Assembly (NCBI GenBank): GCA_035529375.1
Contig: DATKWU010000009.1
Coordinates: forward strand, 289,111 to 353,110
Length of the DNA: 64,000 bases
DNA from: Patescibacteria group bacterium
Lineage (GTDB): Bacteria > Patescibacteriota > Microgenomatia > PFEM01 > JAHIFH01
Direction: 5' to 3'
Position numbers and translations under genes: made by a program. The notes beneath the pieces were generated by a model. The model was not told where the DNA came from and made no database searches. It was given only the letters and a program-made list of their open reading frames with translations. Shown one piece after another: positions 545 to 60,401 of this stretch. Every line of letters begins with the position of its first letter. Within the stretch, counting starts at the first letter, position 1.

Positions 545-2296
545 ATGAAGAACAAATTGCAAGCCATCCGTTTAAGGCTCTTATTCTCAATTATTTTGGC
601 GATGATTGCCTTTTTGAGTTTGGTTTTTATTAGTTATCACCTTGCTTATTGGCAAAAGATTTATCCAGGCGTAACTGTCCTTGATCAATCTGTTGGTAAC
701 CAAAATTTAGAGACTGCTAATTTCACTATCAGCCGGATTATTAATCAAGCTAGCCCTAGTGCTAACTTGACCCTAACCCTAGAAGAACGAACTTGGTCGC
801 TAGAATTAAGGGATCTCCAATACCAACCAGAAAAAACAGCCGAAAAAGCCTGGCAAATTGGTCGGAGCAACAATCCTCTGAAAAATCTCCAAGAAAAATA
901 TGAGGCCTGGATGGGTAAAATTAACCTTCCTTTGGAATATTCACTAGACAACGCTGTTCTTGATGAACAATTAGACCAAATCGCTGATCAGGTCTTTGTC
1001 CCGATGATCGAGCCGGCGATTAAAATAGACGCCCAAAAGCAAATTCAGATTGAACCTGGAAAATCAGGTTTAAACTTAGATAAAACCAGTTTATCTTCAA
1101 CGGTTAACTCTCAATTAACTTATTTGAACTTTGAATCCATTGGATTGCTAACAATTCAGGCTTCTCCCCAACTAACTGAAAAACAGATAGAAGAAACTCG
1201 ATCCCGAGCCGAAAAATTCCTTAATAAAAAACTCATCCTTATTAACAATGAAATGACTTGGGAATTAGATGATGAACAACTTATTCAACTACTTTCCTTT
1301 ACTAATGGTTTCAACCAAGAAAAGATTGCCAGCTGGTCAGCCAATCTTGCTTCAGCCATCAACCATCCACCTCAAAACGCGGCTTTTGAGTTCAATCAAG
1401 GCCGAGTCACCCAATTTCGAGCCGCTAAAGATAGTCTCAATCTTGAAGAACAAAAAACCATTGATTTGATTGCTCATTCTTTAACCGAATTGGAAAATAA
1501 TAAAGAAACAATCACGACTCAACTCCCGATTATCACCACGCCACCCCAAATTGCTACGGCCGAAGTTAACAATCTTGGTATTCAGCAATTAGTTGGTCGG
1601 GGTATCTCTTATTTCCGAGGTTCAATCAGTTCTCGAATTCACAACATCCAATTAGCGGCTTCGAGATTAAATGGCCTCCTGGTTGCCCCGGATGAAACTT
1701 TTTCCTTTAATCAATCCTTGGGTGAGGTTTCACCAACTACTGGTTTTCAACAAGCTTATATTATTAAAGAAGGTCGGACAGTTCTGGGCGATGGCGGTGG
1801 AGTTTGCCAAGTCTCCACCACTCTTTTTCGAGCCGCTTTAGATGCTGGCCTACCCATTATTGAACGCCAGGCTCATGCTTATCGCGTCGGCTATTATGAA
1901 CAAAATTCGACCGTCGGTTTGGATGCGACCGTCTTTGATCCAACGGCTGACTTAAAATTTAAGAACGATACCCCCGCCTACTTATTAATTCAGACTCAAA
2001 CTGACACTAAAAACCAAAAATTAACCTTTGAACTCTATGGAACCTATGATGGCCGAGTCACAACCATCTCCGAATCAAGAATTTGGGACCAAATCCCACC
2101 TCCCCCTGATCTTTATCAGGATGATCCTACTCTCCCGGCTGGCCGAATAAAACAGATTGATTGGCAAGCCTGGGGCGCGAAAGTTGCTTTTGACTATCGG
2201 GTTGAACATAACGGAGAAACTCTTCAAGACCGAACCTTTTATTCTAACTATCGTCCTTGGCAAGCAATTTACCTTCGGGGTACCGGCAATCAGTAA
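545..2296 (+). CDS. VanW-family protein with an N-terminal TM anchor
   Basis: N-terminal TM (LLFSIILAMIAFLSLVFISY). VanW-domain signature GDGGGVCQVSTTLFRAALDAGLPIIERQAHAY. Confidence 0.7.
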   Translation: MKNKLQAIRLRLLFSIILAMIAFLSLVFISYHLAYWQKIYPGVTVLDQSVGNQNLETANFTISRIINQASPSANLTLTLEERTWSLELRDLQYQPEKTAEKAWQIGRSNNPLKNLQEKYEAWMGKINLPLEYSLDNAVLDEQLDQIADQVFVPMIEPAIKIDAQKQIQIEPGKSGLNLDKTSLSSTVNSQLTYLNFESIGLLTIQASPQLTEKQIEETRSRAEKFLNKKLILINNEMTWELDDEQLIQLLSFTNGFNQEKIASWSANLASAINHPPQNAAFEFNQGRVTQFRAAKDSLNLEEQKTIDLIAHSLTELENNKETITTQLPIITTPPQIATAEVNNLGIQQLVGRGISYFRGSISSRIHNIQLAASRLNGLLVAPDETFSFNQSLGEVSPTTGFQQAYIIKEGRTVLGDGGGVCQVSTTLFRAALDAGLPIIERQAHAYRVGYYEQNSTVGLDATVFDPTADLKFKNDTPAYLLIQTQTDTKNQKLTFELYGTYDGRVTTISESRIWDQIPPPPDLYQDDPTLPAGRIKQIDWQAWGAKVAFDYRVEHNGETLQDRTFYSNYRPWQAIYLRGTGNQ

Positions 2297-42432: not shown

Positions 42433-42876
42433 GTGAAAGTTATTAACCGTCGAGCTCGCTATGATTACTATCTTTTAGAGAAGTTTGAAGCAGGCATTGC
42501 CTTAACTGGCTCAGAGGTCAAATCAGTTAAGGCAAGCAAACTAAGCCTTAACGAAGGCTTTGTTAAGATAATTGGAGGCGAGGCTTGGTTACTTAATGCC
42601 TATATCAACCCTTATCCTTATGCCGATAATCGAGATTATGATTCCAAGCGTAACCGGAAGCTGCTTTTACATAAAAACGAGCTCCTAAAATTAAGCCAGC
42701 AAACTAAGGAAAAGAATTTGACGATTGTACCTGTTTCGTGCTATACTAAGGGTCGAAAAATCAAACTAGAGATTGCCTTAGCTAGAGGGAAAAAGAAGTA
42801 TGATAAAAGAGAAACAAAGAAACGCAAGGCAATTGAAAGAGAAATTGAACAGACATTAAAAGATAAGGGGATGTAA
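42433..42876 (+). CDS. smpB: SsrA-binding protein SmpB
   Basis: VINRRARYDYYLLEKFEAGIALTGSEVKSVK... is an SmpB signature. GTG start. Directly upstream of the tmRNA. Confidence 0.9.
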   Translation: MKVINRRARYDYYLLEKFEAGIALTGSEVKSVKASKLSLNEGFVKIIGGEAWLLNAYINPYPYADNRDYDSKRNRKLLLHKNELLKLSQQTKEKNLTIVPVSCYTKGRKIKLEIALARGKKKYDKRETKKRKAIEREIEQTLKDKGM

Positions 42877-43236
42877 GTCTCGACGGGAAGGGTTCTTTAA
42901 AAACAGCAAGCCGACCTGAAATAAGCCGTTAAAAGGTTTCAAAAAAAATATAACTGGCAACCCAAAAGTTGCTAATTATGCTTATGCTTACGCTTAAAAG
43001 CGCTTGGGCATAAGCCATTCATAGTTTTTTCTCCTGGTGAGAAACTATGGGTGACAACCCAGCCAGGATACAATTCAATTGGTTTGGCTAGACTGATTGA
43101 GCCAAGTTTAATTAGCCTTGGTTTTAACTTTCCGGTTGACAGGATCAGGTTAAGACGACAATTAAGAGTCAACTAAGCTTGTAGAAGTTTTTAGAAATTC
43201 TTTTCGGACGCCGGTTCACTCCGGCCATCTCCACCA
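42867..43236 (+). ncRNA. ssrA: tmRNA (ssrA), ~370 nt, not in the ORF track
   Basis: 5' end GGGGATGTAAGTCTCGACGGGAAGG (compare E. coli GGGGCUGAUUCUGGAUUCGACGGGAU). 3' tRNA-like end GGACGCCGGTTCACTCCGGCCATCTCCACCA. The 7-bp acceptor pairing GGGGATG/CATCTCC is preserved. Internal tag ORF GGC AAC CCA AAA GTT GCT AAT TAT GCT TAT GCT TAC GCT TAA (42956-42997) encodes GNPKVANYAYAYA*. Confidence 0.75.
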
Positions 43237-48726: not shown

Positions 48727-49449
48727 TTGATTTACTTTGTTCGATATGCTAAAAATGGATTAATGGGGTATGCAGGTAAGTTAGAAGAAAAAAGACAAGC
48801 TCTTGAACTTCGCCAAAAAGGCATTTCTTATGGTGAAATCCAAAAAAAAGTTCCAGTTTCTAAAGACACACTCAGTCGTTGGTGTCGAGATGTAATCCTG
48901 GTTCCCTCTCAGATGGAGAGATTGAAAAAGAGAAGACTAAGAGGAGCAGAGAAGGGAAGAATAATTGGTGCAAAAAAACAACAACGGGATCGAATTAAAA
49001 GAACCAAAAGATTAATAAAGGAAGGCAAAAGAGAAGTTGGAAAATTGGCCAAGAGAGATAGATTTACGGCTGGAATAGCCCTTTATTTGGGTGACGGGTA
49101 CAAATCAGATAAAAGCATTGGTTTTTCAAATTCTAATCCTCAAATAATTTCTTTTATGATGAGATGGTTTCGGGAGTTTTGCCAAGTTCCTGAAGAAAAA
49201 TTTCGTGGACAAATTTGGATTCATGAAGGTTTGGATGAATTGAAAGCAAGAAGATATTGGTCGAAAATTACCAGTATTCCAATAGGTCAGTTTCAAAAAA
49301 GTTATATTGCTAAGAATAAAAAAGAAAGCAGAAAAGTTAGGAAAAAATTACACGATTATGGTGTATTTGCAATTAGAATCTCTAGTGCGGAGAGACAGAG
49401 AAAAATTCTTGGTTGGATAGCTGGTATTTTAGGCAAGGAATTAGTATAA
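48727..49449 (+). CDS. HTH-domain protein with a LAGLIDADG-like motif (candidate free-standing homing-endonuclease-like protein)
   Basis: N-terminal HTH (LELRQKGISYGEIQKKVPVSKDTLSRWCRD). Basic linker. Then TAGIALYLGDGYKSDKSIGFSNSNPQIISFMMRWF, which resembles the LAGLIDADG block. Ends 20 nt before the intron-containing tRNA. Confidence 0.45.
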   Translation: MIYFVRYAKNGLMGYAGKLEEKRQALELRQKGISYGEIQKKVPVSKDTLSRWCRDVILVPSQMERLKKRRLRGAEKGRIIGAKKQQRDRIKRTKRLIKEGKREVGKLAKRDRFTAGIALYLGDGYKSDKSIGFSNSNPQIISFMMRWFREFCQVPEEKFRGQIWIHEGLDELKARRYWSKITSIPIGQFQKSYIAKNKKESRKVRKKLHDYGVFAIRISSAERQRKILGWIAGILGKELV

Positions 49450-49468
49450 TATCGTTGTATTTTGACAA

Positions 49469-49753
49469 TCCGCGGTAGCTCAATGGTAGAGCGACTGCCT
49501 GTCAATTTGGCAGCTTTTCGCTGAAAGGCGAATTGAAAAACCGGGTGAATTCAGGGAAACCTAAATCTTTTTGATATGGTAATCCTGAGCCAAGTCCGCC
49601 CAGGCGGAAAGGTGCAGAGACTAGGTGAGTACACCTTAAAGCGCCCGGCACCTAAAGCTTAAAGCTACGGTGATGAGATAGTCCACACCTTTTGGAAACA
49701 AAGGGATTTGTGTAAGCAGTTGGTTGTAGGTTCGAATCCTACCCGCGGAGCCA
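49469..49753 (+). tRNA. tRNA (Asp-GUC or Asn-GUU; exon junction ambiguous) interrupted by a ~210-nt group I intron in the anticodon loop
   Basis: 5' half TCCGCGGTAGCTCAATGGTAGAGCGACTGCCTGTCAA (acceptor, D-arm, 5' anticodon stem ACTGC, loop CTGTC...). 3' half (A)AGCAGTTGGTTGTAGGTTCGAATCCTACCCGCGGAGCCA (3' anticodon stem GCAGT, T-arm, acceptor CCGCGGA pairing perfectly with TCCGCGG, discriminator G, CCA). The two halves are separated by ~210 nt. Confidence 0.7.
49504..49715 (+). other. Group I self-splicing intron (putative) within the tRNA anticodon loop
   Basis: Contains the conserved group I core elements R (GCAGAGACTAGG, 49615-49623) and S (GATGAGATAGTCCAC, 49676-49684), whose GACTA/TAGTC segments can form P7. 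The sequence GGCAG at intron nt 4-8 is complementary to the exon anticodon-stem CTGCC (possible P1/IGS). Exact boundaries +/-3 nt. Confidence 0.55.
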
Positions 49754-51298
49754 GTTGGAACTTAATATACCAAGTTTAGCCTCATTCAAAACTTGGAGTG
49801 CCGGAGTGTATTCGACCTCCATTATTTTCTTATCTTGTACCCATATCTTTTGGAAGAAAAAGTGTAAATAAGCACGCTTGTGATCAATGTCCGAATCCTC
49901 ATAGGTTTGAACAATATTTCGAGTTAGTTTAAGTACTTCATTTATGATCGAAGTATCAATGGTATTGGTCTTATCCTGTTCCACAAGTTCTTTCTGAATG
50001 ACTAGAGCTTCTGCATCTAGTTGAGTATTATATTTTTGGAGTTGTTCGACAGGAAGTTTGTTATCAAAGTAGTCTTTTTCAATCTTTATTCTTTTTTGGT
50101 CAACTGCATCCCTTTTGTTATATAGAGCTTTTTTAGCGCGCTGAATACGATCAATACTTTCGTCATAAACACGAGTGATATTGGTTTCTACTGCTTGGAT
50201 GAATTCATCAGTAAAGGCTAGCTTATCGACCTCTTGTTTTACTTGGTCCTCAAGATTAGTGAGTAATACATATCTTGAAGGGCAACCACCACGCTTACCA
50301 GTTTGAGAGCAGTGATACATTCCAATCTTTCCATTACCAGTTTTATATTTTTCGTGATAATGCCACTCTGCAACATAACGTCTGCCACAGTCTTTGCAAA
50401 AGACAACGCCCCGAAGAAGAAAGTTGTGTTTTCTCTTGCGAAGACCATAATCGCCTTTTTCTGAGAGTATCTTTTGAACTAAATCAAAAGTCTGCTTATC
50501 AACTAGAGGTTCGTGTTTCCCCATACCTTCATGTCCTCCGTGTTTCATCCAACCCCAATAAAATGAATTCTTAAGCATATTGCCAACAATAGAGTATTGA
50601 ATCGGTTTCCCTTTTCTACCTGTTACTCCATTTTTGTGGAGGTACTGGCGAATATCATAAATTGCATAGTCACGAGTTGCATACAATTTATAAGCCTGTC
50701 GAACAAAAGGAGCTATAGCAGGATCAGGAATGACAATCTTTTTGTCGTAAGAGCCTTCAGGATTTTTATTGACAACATTTAAGTAACCCAATGGCGCCCA
50801 CGAAGGATAATATCCTGCTTTAAACTTTTCAGAAGCTGTTTGTTTGACCTTGTAGCTAGTCATACGAGGAAAGAAAGCGTTCATTACCGCCATCATTTCA
50901 TTCATGGTTCTACTTACTGGATCACCATTAATTACTCCTGAAAGAGGAACGATTTTAACTCCACATTTTTCTAGTTCGCTAACAATGAAACAGTATTCGA
51001 AAGTGTCACGAGAGAGTCGGGATATGTCTTGCACAACAAGATACGCAATATCTTTTTTGTAACATCTACTTAGTAATGCTTGGAAGCTTGGTCTGTTTAA
51101 AGTAGTACCTGAAATCCCATTATCAACGTAGCAATCCTCAGCTAGGTACCCACCTAACTCTTGAATCTTCTCTAGTGCCTTTATTTGTTGGGTTTCAATA
51201 CTAAGATTATCTACCTGATCCATTGTGGACACTCTAGCGTAGATGATGCATTTTGGTTTACTTCCGTGATCGCTATTTATATCTTGTTTTAACTGCAT
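49739..51298 (-). CDS. Large serine recombinase (resolvase-type catalytic domain + recombinase domain + zinc ribbon), integrase of the element
   Basis: N-terminal IYARVSTMDQ catalytic-Ser motif and SRLSRD. Large C-terminal domain with CKDCGRRY...C zinc ribbon and a coiled-coil. Its 3' end overlaps the left direct repeat and the tRNA 3' exon. Confidence 0.85.
   Translation of the reverse strand: MQLKQDINSDHGSKPKCIIYARVSTMDQVDNLSIETQQIKALEKIQELGGYLAEDCYVDNGISGTTLNRPSFQALLSRCYKKDIAYLVVQDISRLSRDTFEYCFIVSELEKCGVKIVPLSGVINGDPVSRTMNEMMAVMNAFFPRMTSYKVKQTASEKFKAGYYPSWAPLGYLNVVNKNPEGSYDKKIVIPDPAIAPFVRQAYKLYATRDYAIYDIRQYLHKNGVTGRKGKPIQYSIVGNMLKNSFYWGWMKHGGHEGMGKHEPLVDKQTFDLVQKILSEKGDYGLRKRKHNFLLRGVVFCKDCGRRYVAEWHYHEKYKTGNGKIGMYHCSQTGKRGGCPSRYVLLTNLEDQVKQEVDKLAFTDEFIQAVETNITRVYDESIDRIQRAKKALYNKRDAVDQKRIKIEKDYFDNKLPVEQLQKYNTQLDAEALVIQKELVEQDKTNTIDTSIINEVLKLTRNIVQTYEDSDIDHKRAYLHFFFQKIWVQDKKIMEVEYTPALQVLNEAKLGILSSNWLRG
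49748..49771. repeat. Left copy of the 24-bp direct repeat GAGCCAGTTGGAACTTAATATACC (tRNA 3' end + 18 nt); putative attL
   Basis: Exact 24/24 match to 60378-60401. The match extends (with a 1-nt indel) by AAGT. Confidence 0.6.
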
Positions 51299-53379: not shown

Positions 53380-55107
53380 TTAGTTACTAGTGTGTTGTGG
53401 GGCTCTTTTTAATAGATTGAGTAGTTCTCCTTTTTGAATTTGAGCTACTTGTTCGGGCATAAGAGTAAACGAAAATTTAGGATTATCTGATTCGGCTGCT
53501 AAAATAGCCGTACCGATTCTTGTATCATCAATATAAATACTCACAAAATAAATTCCTGGTTTTGGTATTTTAAAAATCATATCACCATCTACGGGACTGA
53601 TGACAAAACTGGAAGAAGAAACAACTGTGGCTGTGTCAACAAGAAATGACTCTCTTGTTGAAGCATTAACTAGCCTAATTTCAAGATGATGCGTTCCTAT
53701 TGGTAGCCTAAAAGCACTTGCAATATGTGCTCTGAGCGGAAGTGGATAGTTTTTCCAGTACGACACCATAAATTGATTTTCAAACTTTAGATAGGATTCT
53801 TCGTATATGGACTTTTCACAGATAGTAAAGTAAACCAGTTCAGCTTTGCCAGACTTTTCAATCACTTCGTCTACGCATTTCCTTAAATGATCCATCATTA
53901 TTTCTTGTTGTTTTTTCATAAACACATCTTTTTTATCAGGGGAGGGAACATCTTCTTTAACATGACCAAAATACATTGCACGCCTTCCTATTAATTGTTT
54001 GTCAATATAACATTCCAATATTGCTGGACCAGGTTTTTCTACGGATAAGTAAATCTTGGAAACAGTATCAATTTCTTCTGGTAAATACTCAATGTGAACA
54101 TCTTGACTATATACTTCTTTTTCTTCGAAATTTTTCAATACGAATCTTAGCTTATGATCACCAGCAGAACCCCAAAGACCAACTGCCGCAATTAACTCAA
54201 CCGAAAAAGGGAATTTATGCGAAGCAATATTCGTTAGTGGATTAAAAAATTCAATAGTTCCTGGACTAATTTTAATTCCGGTGCAAGTTAAAAAATAAGT
54301 TAGGTGCCATTTAACAGCTGATTCTCCAGGAGGCATTTCAAAATCATGAAACTGTAACCTTTTTGCAGGTTCAGTGATTAATTTTATTGGCTCAACTAGT
54401 TGAGTGGTTATATTTTTAGTTAAATCGTGTTGCGTCCAAACACCCTTTTCCATTTCAATGCTTTTAGAGTTAGGTTCTTTATCTGGGTCAATGTCAACAA
54501 ATCCATACCACAAGGGTCTTATCCCATCTGATTCGATTAAGATTGTCTGGAATAATCCCCCAACGGTATCTATTCCCTGTCTTCCTAACTCACTTCCTAG
54601 ATTAATGTAGAGCAAATCAGCCTTTTGTTTTAAAGATTGATTAGGTTTTTCAAATAGGTTTGCGTTTTTTCGAAGATAACCAGCAACGATATTACCTGAA
54701 CCAATAACTGTAAATCCTTCATTGACTTTTTGGGGAGCAAAGGATGGAAACTCAAAAGAAGATACTTCAATTTTGCCTGAATTATTAATTGTTCCAAGGA
54801 TAAAAGCTAAGGGCTCTTTTATTTTTTTATAATAGAATTTTGCTATCCTACATAGCTCTGATACCATTACGTTAGGAATATTTAACTTTGATTTTTTCTT
54901 TAGCGTTCCTCTTAGGCTATTTATCACTAACGCTGCTGTTTTAACATCACCAGCGTATCCAATTACCATTCTATTTCCTAAAGGCAATATTTTTTGTAAT
55001 TTATCCTCAAGAATGTTAGCGTTGATTCTTTTATCCACCCAAGTCGCTCGGCTATCAGAAATCATCACTGTTCCTTCTTTGAATTTGTAGGCTAAAACCA
55101 TTGTCAT
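53380..55107 (-). CDS. HslV/proteasome-beta-like Ntn-hydrolase domain fused to a ~370-aa C-terminal domain of unknown function (element cargo)
   Basis: N-terminus M-TMVLAYKFKEGTVMISDSRATW (Thr directly after the initiator Met, D-x-R/Q-AT). RMVIGYAGDVKTAALVINSL and TVIGSGNIVAGYL parallel HslV TTIVSV...AGDGQATLG, VIAGFAGGTADAFTLFE and IAIGSGGNYALSAA. Confidence 0.6.
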   Translation of the reverse strand: MTMVLAYKFKEGTVMISDSRATWVDKRINANILEDKLQKILPLGNRMVIGYAGDVKTAALVINSLRGTLKKKSKLNIPNVMVSELCRIAKFYYKKIKEPLAFILGTINNSGKIEVSSFEFPSFAPQKVNEGFTVIGSGNIVAGYLRKNANLFEKPNQSLKQKADLLYINLGSELGRQGIDTVGGLFQTILIESDGIRPLWYGFVDIDPDKEPNSKSIEMEKGVWTQHDLTKNITTQLVEPIKLITEPAKRLQFHDFEMPPGESAVKWHLTYFLTCTGIKISPGTIEFFNPLTNIASHKFPFSVELIAAVGLWGSAGDHKLRFVLKNFEEKEVYSQDVHIEYLPEEIDTVSKIYLSVEKPGPAILECYIDKQLIGRRAMYFGHVKEDVPSPDKKDVFMKKQQEIMMDHLRKCVDEVIEKSGKAELVYFTICEKSIYEESYLKFENQFMVSYWKNYPLPLRAHIASAFRLPIGTHHLEIRLVNASTRESFLVDTATVVSSSSFVISPVDGDMIFKIPKPGIYFVSIYIDDTRIGTAILAAESDNPKFSFTLMPEQVAQIQKGELLNLLKRAPQHTSN

Positions 55108-55252
55108 AACTCTCTTTTTCCTCCTCTTGTATTATATCCGAACTATGAGTTTATATACCCGAATAAATTTATTACAATACAAAAAGAAAACTAAAGAAAA
55201 TTCAACCTTTGTCGTTGTGTTATTTCCCCATTTTTGGTTTAATATAAACCAT

Positions 55253-58000
55253 ATGAGCAACATGGGAGAACCATTATCAGGAGCAACACCACTTGAAGCA
55301 ATAAAACCGCCAGTTGTTGCCACTTCTCCAGAAAATCAACCCATTAACCCACTTGCTGAACAATACCAATCTAAAGCACAAGAACTAAAGATTAAACCTG
55401 TGCAGAGTGGTGAGTGGATTGCAACTGATGGCGTTGAATATATTCAATGGGGTGATGAGAAACATCAGTTTGCTTCCAATACAGATGAACAAACTTTCCC
55501 AACCAGATTAAATCAAGTCGGAACCTATGATTCTAATAATGGCACGCTTGCTTTTGTTGATGAAAAAGGCGTAATGCATGCAGGACACTCAACGGATGCA
55601 AATTTTCAAGCATTAGAACAGGCAGGATATAGACGTGGTGGTATTTGGGTTCCATTCTCCAACGGAGAAGTGCCAGCAGATCCAGAATTAAGAAAGCAAT
55701 ATATAGAACTTAGGGAAAAGGGGAGAGAAATAAATAAAAAAGCAAATATTGAACGACACCTTCATGTTTATAGTGAAACCGCTGAGAGAAAAGGAATAAA
55801 ACCTGTTGAGGGGGGTCTGTTTATGATGGTTGATGGTATTGAATACAGACATTGGGGAAACGAAACAGGGACAATAGACACCAATACAGACGGTTATAAC
55901 ATGGCTATTCGAAGAGTTGAACAAGTGGGAACTTTCGATGGTAATAACGGAAGAATGGCTTTTGTGGATGGACAAGGAAGAATGTGGGCTGGTGCAGCTA
56001 CTAGCGAAAACTATGAAGCAATAAATAAAGCTGGTTATACAAGGGGTGGTATCTGGGTTCCCTTCTCTAATGGAGAAATGCCAACCGATAGAGCAACTTA
56101 CGAACAACTAAGGGATGTTTTAACTGGAAAACACGCAGAACAATTAAAAGCCGAAAGGGATGCTAGGGTTGAAGAAATAATTGAAGGAAGAAAAGTTTTA
56201 TTTGGTGATACTGCGATATTGCCAGATAGGAACGAACTATTTGTCAAAGTTGCAGATAGAGCAGAGCGACAATACATAAACGAAGCTGAATTAGTTAAGG
56301 AAAAGTTACAACCCAGAACTGAAAAAGATAACGCTGGTTTTGAACGAAGTATATATACAATTAACGGTGTTACCTTTTCTTTTAAAGGTCGAGAAGAATT
56401 ACCAACTTATCAAACATTAACAAGTTCAAGAACTACGCTATTGGGAGAGGCTCCGAATTGGGTTGAAGTAGAAGATTATCAAAAATATCAAGAACAATTA
56501 AGACAAACTCAAACCCAAGAAGGTGCTACACAACATTTTGTAACAAATAAAACGCTTCTAGGTGTTGTTGAATTAGCAATAACATTAGGAAGTAAAGATA
56601 GTTCACTAACACAACTTCGTGGGGAATTATATAAAGGAGTTTATAGCCAAAGAGCATTGACACTATTAGATGCTTTAGTTGATTCTAATTATGGTGATTC
56701 GATCAGATATGGTGGTAAACCAGAAAGCCAAGCTGAAGCGGTGGTTTTATTATCTTTACTTGGTGATATTCAAGCACAAACTGCTGTTGCTGAAAATGTT
56801 GAGTCGCAAAGAGAATACGAGACAAGCAAACAAGCTCATCGTGAGCGAAGAAAAATTGACAATGAACCATTAAAACCACAGGAATTGTGTGCCGTACATG
56901 CTACAAGGTATAAGCCAGAAGCTACAGAAGATGGGGATTTTTTAATTCCTACTACTTTTGATGCAACTAAAGGAAAGGTATTGCGAAATACAGTTCACAC
57001 AGCGTTAAATCACAAAGTTGCAGGTCATATGTATGGTTCTTGGGGCGATGCGGGATATGTGGTTATTTCGCCATTTGAGAAAATGATGGAAGCAAATGGA
57101 GTTCCAGCAGTTTTGAATACCGTTGATACCTATTGGGCAACTAACCCTGGCGAACCATTAGTTTTTGCTAACGGAACTCTTGTGGCTCCTGGTGGTAATG
57201 AAGTTCAAGGATTGTATCAGCAAGAAGGAAATGTTGTAAAGTTTAAATCGTCTGGTTTAGATAGACAGGATTTAATAAATCTAACTGCCTATTCTAGGCA
57301 AAATGGTTATCAAGATAGTTTTTCAAGAAGTATAGACGAAGCATTAAGCGGAGCGTTACATCCTTATGGTTCTGCTATGGAATTAGCAGATCAGTGGGAT
57401 TTTAGTACTACCCAACTAGCTCTAAATCAATTCCTTTACCATGCAGATAATAGTTATGGTCATCAACCTGCACTTCTAAATTTGTTGACAGTAGAAATTG
57501 AGGGTCAACCGGAATCAAATATCGAAACCAGACTCAAAAATTTAATTGAGCAGTCAGGGGCAATATCGGGATTAAAGCCAGAAGTTACTGATAAAGATAG
57601 TGCTGTTACTACATTTGCAAAAACTCTCGCTGATAGAATTAGGTCAACAATGTTTTCTGAATTGAATGAGTTAACGGTTAGGGAGGCAATTAGACAGAGG
57701 GGATTTGCAGTTCAACCTGGAGGAATGTGGGCTTGGGGTGATAGTTGGACGGTAACTGCAGAAACAGGTGCTTTAGGAGAAGAATTAGGAGTGCCTGTTG
57801 GAGCGCATACCAACATGGTAGACCATACGTTAACAGAAAGATTTTCTGGAGCGATTAGTCAAGCCACAGAGGGAGAACGTGGTAATGGGAAATTTAATTG
57901 GACAAAATATAATGCAAACTATGATGATTTAGTAAAGGACTTGGACCCAAAAACTCGCAGAGTTCTTTATGCTTCAGGACTTTTGACCGCTAGAGGATAA
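55253..58000 (+). CDS. Large hypothetical protein with two tandem ~125-aa repeats (element cargo; divergent from the Ntn-hydrolase gene)
   Basis: Repeat 1 GVEYIQWGDEKHQF...NNGTLAFVDEKGVMHAGHSTDANFQALEQAGYRRGGIWVPFSNGEVP. Repeat 2 GIEYRHWGNETGTI...NNGRMAFVDGQGRMWAGAATSENYEAINKAGYTRGGIWVPFSNGEMP. Start moved to ATG 55253 (MSNMGEPLSG), preceded by TTGGTT-17-TATAAA. The track ORF from 55127 would leave only 19 bp to the divergent gene. Confidence 0.55.
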   Translation: MSNMGEPLSGATPLEAIKPPVVATSPENQPINPLAEQYQSKAQELKIKPVQSGEWIATDGVEYIQWGDEKHQFASNTDEQTFPTRLNQVGTYDSNNGTLAFVDEKGVMHAGHSTDANFQALEQAGYRRGGIWVPFSNGEVPADPELRKQYIELREKGREINKKANIERHLHVYSETAERKGIKPVEGGLFMMVDGIEYRHWGNETGTIDTNTDGYNMAIRRVEQVGTFDGNNGRMAFVDGQGRMWAGAATSENYEAINKAGYTRGGIWVPFSNGEMPTDRATYEQLRDVLTGKHAEQLKAERDARVEEIIEGRKVLFGDTAILPDRNELFVKVADRAERQYINEAELVKEKLQPRTEKDNAGFERSIYTINGVTFSFKGREELPTYQTLTSSRTTLLGEAPNWVEVEDYQKYQEQLRQTQTQEGATQHFVTNKTLLGVVELAITLGSKDSSLTQLRGELYKGVYSQRALTLLDALVDSNYGDSIRYGGKPESQAEAVVLLSLLGDIQAQTAVAENVESQREYETSKQAHRERRKIDNEPLKPQELCAVHATRYKPEATEDGDFLIPTTFDATKGKVLRNTVHTALNHKVAGHMYGSWGDAGYVVISPFEKMMEANGVPAVLNTVDTYWATNPGEPLVFANGTLVAPGGNEVQGLYQQEGNVVKFKSSGLDRQDLINLTAYSRQNGYQDSFSRSIDEALSGALHPYGSAMELADQWDFSTTQLALNQFLYHADNSYGHQPALLNLLTVEIEGQPESNIETRLKNLIEQSGAISGLKPEVTDKDSAVTTFAKTLADRIRSTMFSELNELTVREAIRQRGFAVQPGGMWAWGDSWTVTAETGALGEELGVPVGAHTNMVDHTLTERFSGAISQATEGERGNGKFNWTKYNANYDDLVKDLDPKTRRVLYASGLLTARG

Positions 58001-60264: not shown

Positions 60265-60382
60265 AGGCAAGGTTTCACTTTTTCTATTTCCTCTCTGATT
60301 TGAGCTACAAGCCTAAAGTCAGAGAAAGCCTTGATAATACAAGATAATTGCGTGGTTATATTAGAGGTGCGATCCTCGAGCC
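60265..60382. repeat. ~120-bp att-proximal sequence, copy A (partner at 63124-63250, ~70% identity)
   Basis: AGGCAAGGTTTCACTTT...CCTTGATAATACAAGATAATTGCGTGGTTATATTAGAGGTGCGATCCTCGAGC versus AGGCAAGGCTTCACTTT...CCTTGATAATATGGGAAAAACTCTTGGTTATATTAAGGTTTCGCCCTTCGAGC. Confidence 0.4.
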
Positions 60383-60401
60383 AGTTGGAACTTAATATAC
60401 C
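60378..60401. repeat. Right copy of the 24-bp direct repeat; putative attR
   Basis: Identical to 49748-49771. Confidence 0.6.

Follow-up and report, generated by a model that had tools for sequence, protein, structure and literature searches.

A 64,000-nucleotide stretch of Patescibacteria DNA (contig DATKWU010000009.1, hereafter the window) contains the two halves of a transfer RNA (tRNA) gene separated by an insert, and just in front of them a protein gene without a name. Which tRNA is encoded here, can the insert remove itself from the transcript, and does the neighbouring gene have anything to do with it? The locus is very probably a functional tRNA-Asn(GUU) gene that is interrupted between U35 and U36 by a self-splicing group I intron of 210 nucleotides (nt) without an open reading frame (ORF), in a Patescibacteria host. 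The gene occupies positions 49469-49753 of the plus strand and is split in the anticodon loop. An earlier reading made from the letters of the window (the sequence-only reading) had proposed two complete halves with perfect acceptor complementarity around an insert of about 210 nt, and all of this was confirmed, the insert measuring exactly 210 nt. The parts of the gene are:

49469-49502, plus strand: exon 1 (TCCGCGGTAGCTCAATGGTAGAGCGACTGCCTGT), with the 5' strand of the acceptor stem, the D-arm, the 5' strand of the anticodon stem and C32-U33-G34-U35, the last base being the splice-site U.
49503-49712, plus strand: group I intron of 210 nt, without an ORF, ending with omega-G (G49712).
49712, plus strand: omega-G, the 3' terminal G of the intron.
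49713-49753, plus strand: exon 2 (TAAGCAGTTGGTTGTAGGTTCGAATCCTACCCGCGGAGCCA), with U36-A37-A38, the 3' strand of the anticodon stem, the variable loop, the T-arm, the 3' strand of the acceptor stem, G73 and the encoded CCA.

These boundaries were set because of a U•G pair in the intron helix P1 and an intron-less ortholog, both presented below. The acceptor stem has seven base pairs, all complementary (U1-A72 to G7-C66), followed by G73 and the encoded CCA. When they are joined at 49502/49713, a cloverleaf of 75 nt results, its anticodon loop reads C-U-G-U-U-A-A, and ARAGORN calls the joined sequence tRNA-Asn(gtt).

That the insert is a group I intron, as had been proposed, is borne out by the covariance model. 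The Rfam family RF00028 (Intron_gpI) matches positions 49493-49705 over the full model (positions 1-253 of 253) and reaches 99.2 bits where the gathering score is 50 (E 1.9e-24), much more than chance would give; this is the single group I match in the whole window. The predicted R and S elements of the catalytic core are present within the insert as GCAGAGACTAGG (49615-49626) and GATGAGATAGTCCAC (49672-49686), with complementary P7 strands. A pattern scan of 185,579 reference genomes gave at least 120 matches; among the matches listed, at least 107 are split tRNAs, and at least 87 of them, together with the window copy, fit the rule for an intron at position 35/36 of tRNA-Asn. We refer to these as the 88 class members; they were chosen for a terminal G before UAA. 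About 75 of the 120 matches listed come from records with titles that name Patescibacteria lineages. A model of P1 to P9 was drawn from the Rfam alignment and by hand and was evaluated on a MAFFT alignment of 48 homologs, which was not fitted to the structure and which we used in place of a covariance model of our own because the covariation was already clear. In this model, 90.2% of the cells are paired, as compared to 33-45% after a shift of the 3' partners by 1-3 columns. There are 451 doubly changed cells versus 155 ± 13 after shuffling, and none of 500 shuffles reached 451. Compensatory changes were found in P2, P3, P4, P6a, the proximal part of P8, and P9. The helices are, in order:

49499-49503 with 49509-49513, plus strand: P1, exon bases C499-U500-G501-U502 and intron base C503 with G509-G510-C511-A512-G513; exon-side pairs invariant in 47 of 47 distinct homologs.
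49517-49532, plus strand: P2 hairpin with a GAAA loop (49523-49526); six of six pairs compensatory, 97% of cells paired.
49541-49547 with 49642-49648, plus strand: P3, seven pairs, four of them compensatory, 97% of cells paired.
49551-49556 with 49583-49588, plus strand: P4, four of six pairs compensatory, 99% paired; encloses P5.
49560-49579, plus strand: P5, CCUAAA...UAUGG, base pairs invariant.
49589-49591 with 49611-49613, plus strand: P6, two pairs invariant, one changing on one side.
49595-49599 with 49604-49608, plus strand: P6a, four of four counted pairs compensatory, 94% paired.
49617-49623, plus strand: 5' strand of P7 (G617, bulged A618, G619-A623), part of GCAGAGACUA, predicted to form a pseudoknot with P3.
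49624-49635, plus strand: extra hairpin GGUG-AGUA-CACC between P7 and the 3' strand of P3, at the position of P7.1.
49651-49670, plus strand: P8, CCUAAAGC...GCUACGG, receptor-like; proximal pairs 99% paired, one compensatory, distal part poorly aligned.
49679-49684, plus strand: 3' strand of P7, UAGUCC.
49688-49705, plus strand: P9 hairpin with a GAAA loop (49695-49698); seven of seven pairs compensatory, 75% of cells paired in this alignment, which is not structure-fitted.

P7 is paired in 99.6% of the cells: five of its six pairs do not change at all, the remaining one is formed in 46 of 47 distinct homologs, and the helix thus shows covariation neither way. The core string AGAGACTA is present in 87 and TAGTC in all of the 88 class members. 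The extra hairpin behind P7 recurs in five of the reference-genome loci (L005, L028, L035, L061, L078; L numbers are our locus labels) and in the published Microgenomatia intron of GCA_016700135.1, while other homologs lack it or have two hairpins in its place. The sequence CCUAAA...UAUGG of P5 resembles the 11-nt GAAA-tetraloop receptor, and the GAAA loops of P2 and P9 together with the receptor-like CCUAA.../UA(U/C)GG elements of P5 and P8 are reminiscent of the architecture of the Azoarcus intron.

Which amino acid the tRNA carries depends on the exact splice junction. Three junctions yield a tRNA that folds into 75 nt: 49502/49713 gives Asn-GUU, 49503/49714 gives Asp-GUC and 49500/49711 gives Thr-UGU. 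The group I rules alone, which ask for U as the last exon base and G as the last intron base, are obeyed by both the Asn and the Thr junction. In the latter case the same 210-nt intron would lie two bases further upstream (33/34), with exon 1 ending at U49500 and the intron at G49710, the product would fold into the same cloverleaf, and indeed ARAGORN in its intron mode (-i) reports tRNA-Thr(tgt) i(33,210); in default mode it does not report the gene in the window. The P1 register of the Rfam alignment gives a different answer. Here, the exon bases C-U-G-U (49499-49502) face the intron bases G-C-A-G (49510-49513) and a U49502•G49510 wobble pair marks the splice site, whereas for tRNA-Thr U49500 would pair with A49512 rather than with a G, and there is no alternative P1. 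At least four exon-side P1 pairs can be formed by 86 of the 88 class members in the 35/36 register versus nine of 88 in the 33/34 register, and the arrangement ...CUGU/intron...G/UAA is common to all 88. Nakagawa et al., and Williams as reported there, describe the same two-base mis-call, which was refuted by the sequenced spliced product. We therefore regard tRNA-Thr(UGU) as very improbable.

An independent answer comes from a close relative (L127, ENA ERZ28563994) that has the same gene order (SmpB, transfer-messenger RNA (tmRNA), six tRNAs, dnaG, rpoD) and 92.7% nucleotide identity through rpoD. At the syntenic site, 33 nt past rpoD, this genome carries an intron-less tRNA-Asn(GTT), which exon 1 matches at L127:10950-10983. 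The 35/36 product differs from it at three of 75 positions, the Asp product at four and the Thr product at five, two of them in the anticodon; both the Asp and the Thr product alter the anticodon, and the 35/36 product alone reproduces it. The Asp reading, in which splicing would occur one base downstream and exon 1 would end at C49503, draws on the fact that the joined sequence folds and is named tRNA-Asp by ARAGORN, and on the existence of tRNA-Asp genes with 35/36 introns in Patescibacteria. It would require a 5' exon ending with C and an intron ending with U, and would thus break both group I splice-site rules. Moreover, the published tRNA-Asp examples begin with G1 (GGGGTCG...), the window gene begins with U1, and the intron-less ortholog has GTT. 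This makes tRNA-Asp(GUC) the least probable of all the explanations considered here, to the point of being negligible.

The body of the tRNA fits Asn rather than Thr or Asp as well, as far as sequence features can tell. U1-A72 and G73, which the sequence-only reading had taken as signs of Asn, are present, and all 88 class members start with U1. Among the best 25 matches listed in a comparison of the spliced sequence with phage tRNAs, 17 are annotated as tRNA-Asn and four as tRNA-Arg; none is tRNA-Thr or tRNA-Asp. This phage collection and the syntenic ortholog were used for typing after an attempt with the tRNAs of E. coli, which are too distant and gave uninformative top matches to tRNA-Arg at 77% identity. 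Taken together, the P1 register, the shared junction, the intron-less ortholog and the tRNA body settle the issue from sequence comparison: The intron sits between anticodon positions 35 and 36, and the mature anticodon is GUU (Asn). The junction originally favoured, ...CCUGU/...G/UAAGCAGU, thus holds, with the P1 of 86 of the 88 homologs and the ortholog L127 behind it. The complementarity of GGCAG near the 5' end of the intron to CTGCC of the exon, which had been noted as well, exists, but it is not the conserved P1 register, which is formed by C32-U35 with GCAG at 49510-49513.

A few observations speak against this picture and have to be weighed. The competing CUGCC/GGCAG register is available in the window copy, and P1 is short, with four exon-side and one or two intron-side pairs. 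The exon side of P1 is invariant, and P7 and the base of P6 are almost so; for these helices the support is from conservation, not from covariation. Finally, P10 pairing is weak or absent in most homologs, with none in 53 of the 88, for which reason P10 was dropped as an argument for the 3' splice site.

How would the tRNA be released? Based on what is seen in the family, the precursor would be transcribed and the intron guide GCAG (49510-49513) would pair with C32-U33-G34-U35 of the exon to form P1, with U35 in the U•G wobble. An external guanosine at the P7 site would then attack after U49502. The terminal G49712 would replace this guanosine, and the freed 3'-OH of U35 would attack before U49713, joining the exons to the 75-nt tRNA with the loop C-U-G-U-U-A-A. 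Catalysis by the window copy is suggested by analogy: precise self-splicing in vitro, with omega-G mutants as controls, has been reported for one tRNA-Asn and one tRNA-Asp 35/36 intron (PMC13011429).

It might be argued that the gene is a decaying pseudogene with an intron that no longer splices, and that another tRNA-Asn gene elsewhere does the work. With 64 kb of the genome in view, a second, intron-less tRNA-Asn gene could exist, which weighs against a functional role of the split gene, and the locus adjoins mobile DNA, namely an integrase island and the endonuclease-like ORF described below. In decay, one would not expect what is found: every conserved core element is intact, and the exons differ from the intron-less ortholog at the CCA end and in one stem pair with a compensatory change, and in nothing else. 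Two of the three differences fall on the same pair in the anticodon stem (U-A versus C-G), with one base in each exon; therefore, the exons of the split gene have kept their pairing, which, as judged from the sequence, speaks for function. We consider a pseudogene quite improbable. For annotation, a functional split tRNA-Asn gene matters: default tRNA finders miss it, and the intron-aware ARAGORN names it tRNA-Thr. In NCBI, the record of this metagenome-assembled genome (MAG) apparently has no annotation for the split gene either, and a record apparently without tRNA-Asn at this place would lower the apparent completeness of the genome. Going by the locus tags and protein accessions of this public record, the five steps from tag VMY36_03040 to VMY36_03065 are taken by five proteins, so that no RNA gene could have a tag between the integrase and the upstream ORF.

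The window thus holds another, apparently unannotated copy of a published class that has been validated in vitro. Williams (2020, bioRxiv 10.1101/2020.01.27.920355) extended the intron-interrupted bacterial tRNA types from the four classical ones to 21 cases; as far as the preprint is reported by Nakagawa et al., the Asn class is called Asn.4Ug there and is at times mis-scored as Thr.2Ug. Among 95 complete Patescibacteria genomes, Nakagawa et al. (mSystems 2026, PMC13011429) found 15 that have the tRNA-Asn(GUU) 35/36 intron. With 15 of the 22 intron-containing tRNA genes of these genomes it is the most common tRNA intron of Patescibacteria, and ARAGORN and tFind often mis-call the genes as Thr(UGU) 33/34 (PMC13011429). 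The view of the sequence-only reading that such an intron is rare and an Asn host tRNA unusual therefore has to be given up, also in the light of the at least 87 further examples in reference genomes. Taken by itself, the split tRNA is an ordinary member of its class; it is the linked ORF family that raises interest.

The window intron shares with the Asn.4Ug introns of GCA_016700035.1 (a Saccharimonadia copy, validated in vitro) and GCA_016700135.1 (Microgenomatia) the host tRNA, the site, the rule U35/...G/U36, the GCAG guide, the core elements GAAUUC-P4, AGCCAAG, GCAGAGACUA and GAGAUAGUCC, the lack of an internal ORF and the mis-call as tRNA-Thr by ARAGORN. The hairpin GGTGAGTACACC after P7 is common to the window and the Microgenomatia copy, but the latter has a second hairpin there and the window one. 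The organism and the sequence are different: identity of the precursors is 66% to the Saccharimonadia and 70% to the Microgenomatia copy, and 59 and 52, respectively, of the 75 positions of the mature tRNA are matched. With 210 nt in a sampled range of 190-346 nt, the window intron is among the shortest. A further difference is the ORF directly upstream; the published search for endonuclease genes was confined to the insides of introns.

Like the IC3 introns in the cyanobacterial tRNA-Leu(UAA) (Nostoc PCC 7120) and in the Azoarcus tRNA-Ile, the window intron is of bacterial origin, small, and inserted into the anticodon loop of a tRNA. The Nostoc intron has long stretches in P4-P6 and P7 that are identical to the window (TCAGGGAAACCTAAATC, AATCCTGAGCCAAG, GGAAGGTGCAGAGACT), and its precursor is 57% identical overall. 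The window intron differs from the IC3 introns in its site (35/36 rather than 34/35 or 36/37), its host tRNA and the extra hairpin between P7 and the 3' strand of P3. Nearly all of the published Patescibacteria introns have been classed as subgroup IA (PMC13011429), those of Asn 35/36 being labelled IA1/IA2, although the P4-P7 core of the window is very close to that of the cyanobacterial tRNA-Leu intron. As compared to the IA introns, the one hairpin between P7 and the 3' strand of P3 sits where P7.1/P7.2 are located, as in the Microgenomatia copy.

Two side observations concern the distribution of such introns. First, several jumbo phages of Klebsiella and Escherichia (about 350 kb; MT708547.1, MT446416.1, OP617745.1 and others) match the P3-P6 core of the intron with 75-77% identity at places without an annotated feature; several of these records are wholly unannotated, and from their sequence the matches are probably unannotated group I introns. 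Second, a split tRNA-Asn of the Patescibacteria type is found in four of the reference-genome loci (L016, L035, L078, L103), in two of them with the ORF, although the record titles read 'Woesearchaeota archaeon' or 'TPA_asm uncultured Gammaproteobacteria/Pseudomonadales', so that their taxonomic labels or binning look doubtful; a similar doubt was raised on a 'Pacearchaeota' bin (Williams, 2020).

The remaining part of the question concerns the gene in front of the split tRNA, between rpoD and the tRNA, which the relative L127 lacks entirely:

48763-49449, plus strand: ORF of 228 amino acids with an N-terminal helix-turn-helix (HTH) and a single LAGLIDADG-fold domain with the motif GIALYLGDGY, ending 19 nt before the tRNA; a candidate free-standing homing endonuclease.

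In the AlphaFold model (predicted local distance difference test 82.9), the HTH is followed by a helix of 30 residues and by an alpha-beta-beta-alpha-beta-beta-alpha domain, which begins with the motif helix. This C-terminal domain has the same fold as I-CreI, I-MsoI, I-CeuI, I-DmoI and WhiA, and the motif helix ends with G-(D/E)-G. The ORF differs from these LAGLIDADG proteins in having no Pfam LAGLIDADG match and 5-14% identity to the solved structures, in the N-terminal HTH that is attached via the 30-residue helix, and in being encoded by a free-standing gene rather than in an intron or intein. We found 266 relatives, nearly all of about 225-235 amino acids, most of them unnamed or 'hypothetical' and many on contigs of about 1 kb. 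In an alignment of 30 sequences, the block RDRF-AG--LY--(D/E)G-K is conserved, and the catalytic position of the motif is acidic in all of 61 distinct homologs (D in 25, E in 36; the window copy has LYLGDG). An observation from the surroundings of two homologs is a match to the AdoCbl-II (cobalamin) riboswitch upstream of the ORF (877-949, plus strand, in both of the metagenome loci L162 and L164), with 36.5 bits, exactly the gathering score.

The family is linked to tRNA-Asn far beyond the window. In four reference-genome loci (L101, L078, L103, L098) a homolog directly precedes a split tRNA, which belongs to the Asn 35/36 class in three of the four, and three more homologs found by exact-sequence look-up also adjoin a split tRNA, in the loci L129-L136. 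In L129-L135 the tRNA begins 19-41 nt past the stop codon of the ORF. From metagenomes, 80 loci were fetched with the family profile, and 72 of them have at least 330 nt downstream. In 71 of the 72 the next gene behind the ORF is a tRNA-Asn, which is split by an intron in about 64 cases: ARAGORN detected a group-I-split tRNA directly after the ORF in 57, and six or seven more were found by Rfam or by eye, so that ARAGORN was not kept as the lone detector of split tRNAs. The distance from the end of the ORF to the start of the tRNA has a median of 27 nt (range 5-355). After de-duplication by ORF sequence, 51 split and two intron-less cases are left, which compared to the published 15 in 95 gives p = 1.6e-23 in Fisher's test, a value that is indicative only as the two samples were drawn differently. 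In about 90% of the sampled cases, a member of the family is next to an intron-split tRNA-Asn, as compared to about 16% of the genomes in the published baseline.

Two of the homologs have a different surrounding. On a Woesebacteria-like contig, the split tRNA-Asn (L136:3175-3443) is convergent to the ORF homolog, i.e. the linkage of ORF and tRNA survives a changed arrangement. Downstream of another homolog (L174:2690-3260), there is a tRNA-Asn-like 5' half with an 18-nt palindromic insert in the region of the D-loop (TCCGCCAGCCGGCGGAGG); a group I match lies about 340 nt further, and therefore this locus is more complex or rearranged.

ORF and intron come and go. The ORF is an indel between two split tRNA loci that are 92% identical, L078 having it and L028 lacking it, and both ORF and intron are missing from the close relative L127. 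All four states are seen, i.e. both ORF and intron (the window), the intron without the ORF (most loci), the ORF without the intron, and neither (L127). This pattern fits the cycle of gain, decay and loss of a homing element, and ORF and intron differ between relatives that are 7% apart in their DNA, so that recent gain or loss is directly visible. The presence or absence of the ORF between near-identical loci (window and L127, L078 and L028) is an indirect, sequence-based indication of homing. Most likely, the ORF encodes a free-standing homing endonuclease that is active now or was so in the past, and its spread goes together with the spread of the intron; activity and coupling are the less certain parts of this statement. 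A more specific version, which we put forward tentatively as one that is plausible but may well turn out wrong, is that the ORF is an active enzyme on the anticodon-arm DNA of intron-less tRNA-Asn genes, that the break is repaired from the allele with ORF and intron, and that the intron is thereby carried along and, as it interrupts the target site, protects its own allele. A homodimeric LAGLIDADG enzyme with a single motif would suit the nearly palindromic DNA of the anticodon arm, which is centred at position 35.

There is precedent in collaborative homing, as reviewed in PMC3984707, PMC6083498 and PMC2790892: with F-CphI and the cyanophage psbA intron, and with mobE of T4 and the I-TevIII intron, an endonuclease-like gene is likewise located just outside a gene with an ORF-less group I intron. 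This arrangement is found in the window, where the ORF ends 19 nt before a split tRNA with a 210-nt intron that has no ORF. The precedents are from phages, from protein-coding genes and with enzymes of the HNH or Endo VII type; in the window there is a bacterial chromosome, a putative tRNA-gene target and a LAGLIDADG-like candidate enzyme with an N-terminal HTH.

Several results do not sit well with a homing endonuclease. As to the fold, searches of the ORF against Pfam, NCBIfam (E up to 10), PHROGs and, with phmmer, the PDB gave at most weak matches to an N-terminal HTH or transposase HTH, and no LAGLIDADG model was matched. The one match of the family profile in the PDB, to I-DmoI on its second LAGLIDADG motif, speaks for the fold but is marginal and short of significance (E 0.026-0.26). 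The result of Foldseek on the ORF model was indecisive. As to the linkage, seven of the 72 metagenome loci (three distinct ones) have an ORF that is followed by an intron-less tRNA-Asn(GTT) 22-40 nt downstream, and one of the 72 has no tRNA. In the loci with the ORF and an intron-less tRNA, a nuclease cutting this exact site must therefore be inactive, or the site must be immune. Conversely, 83 of the 87 reference-genome examples have no full-length ORF homolog in the locus (of up to 8 kb).

These intron-less loci bring up another role for the ORF, which may be a trans-acting maturase that aids the folding of the intron or may, like WhiA, bind DNA and regulate the tRNA-Asn locus, the linkage then being functional rather than a matter of mobility. 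In three distinct loci the ORF is tied to tRNA-Asn even without an intron, the median gap between its end and the tRNA is 27 nt (5-355), and it overlaps a putative -10 element. The acidic residue of the motif is often lost in maturases and WhiA. In this family, it is kept in 61 of 61 homologs. Moreover, loci that are otherwise nearly identical differ by the ORF as an indel (window versus L127; L078 versus L028, 92%), the ORF is often found on contigs of about 1 kb like strain-variable elements, related introns splice without a protein in vitro, and most split tRNA-Asn genes do without the ORF. We therefore view a maturase or regulator as possible but doubtful. In either case, these introns lack a known factor for their mobility or maintenance, and the family is a concrete candidate for it. 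If the ORF is indeed a homing endonuclease coupled to the intron, the most common tRNA intron of Patescibacteria would be one half of a two-part mobile element rather than the immobile relic that the missing intron-encoded endonucleases suggested, and no such two-part element is known to have been described for a bacterial tRNA gene. The HTH-LAGLIDADG family seems to be undescribed in the searchable literature: a full-text search for LAGLIDADG and Patescibacteria gave nothing on tRNA-linked genes, and Nakagawa et al. (PMC13011429), who sought endonuclease genes inside introns only, do not mention free-standing ones.

Several features of the surrounding DNA complete the description. The window is a segment of a bacterial chromosome with 38.9% G+C that carries SmpB, tmRNA, a cluster of Ser/Arg tRNAs, dnaG and rpoD. 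The host belongs to the Patescibacteria, since all five window proteins checked are named 'MAG TPA: ... [Patescibacteria group bacterium]' in NCBI (HUV42847-HUV42860). Two protein clusters from the window include members named Microgenomates and Roizmanbacteria, and a DUF5657 gene is located upstream in the window; the lineage is probably Microgenomates. In front of the tRNA there is a possible promoter element:

49445-49450, plus strand: perfect TATAAT, 18 nt 5' of the tRNA, overlapping the stop codon of the upstream ORF; a possible -10 element, as judged from the sequence.

Motifs similar to TGTTATAAT are present at the equivalent place in four other loci (L152, L153, L154, L216), and a scan of the plus strand with promoter consensus sequences gave no matching pair of -35 and -10 elements. 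A terminator scan marked the hairpins of P1 (49499-49513) and P9 (49688-49705) as terminator-like (stem and T-run). This raises the possibility that transcription stops within the intron; the flags are probably an artefact of the intron structure.

The 3' end of the tRNA gene borders on putative mobile DNA. A 24-nt perfect direct repeat (GAGCCAGTTGGAACTTAATATACC) at 49748-49771 and 60378-60401 brackets 10.6 kb, and its first six bases are GAGCCA, the last six nucleotides of the tRNA. The bracketed DNA encodes proteins with a weak DnaD-like match and large proteins of unknown function, among them:

49739-51298, minus strand: large serine integrase gene of the phage type (phrog_95, E 6e-86), which starts the bracketed DNA.
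53380-55107, minus strand: protein of 575 amino acids with weak proteasome-subunit and DUF6941 matches, inside the putative island.
55127-58000, plus strand: protein of 957 amino acids without a match to a Pfam or PHROGs family, inside the putative island.

From its sequence, the 10.6-kb region looks like an integrated element that used the 3' end of tRNA-Asn. An empty site was sought by exact-protein look-ups of the flanking genes, which gave only island-bearing contigs. The homology between strains stops exactly past ...GGAGC of the tRNA, both between the window and L127 and among three loci of another lineage (L130, L131, L135), which have an identical ORF, intron and tRNA but continue downstream in three different ways, in one case with a serine recombinase. 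This break after ...GAGC thus marks the 3' end of tRNA-Asn in these bacteria as a junction at which integration recurs.

A last observation concerns the tmRNA gene (42867-43236, plus strand), which overlaps the end of smpB (42433-42876) and encodes the unusual tag peptide GNPKVANYAYAYA; in the relative L127, the tag peptide is GNKKVANYAYAYA.

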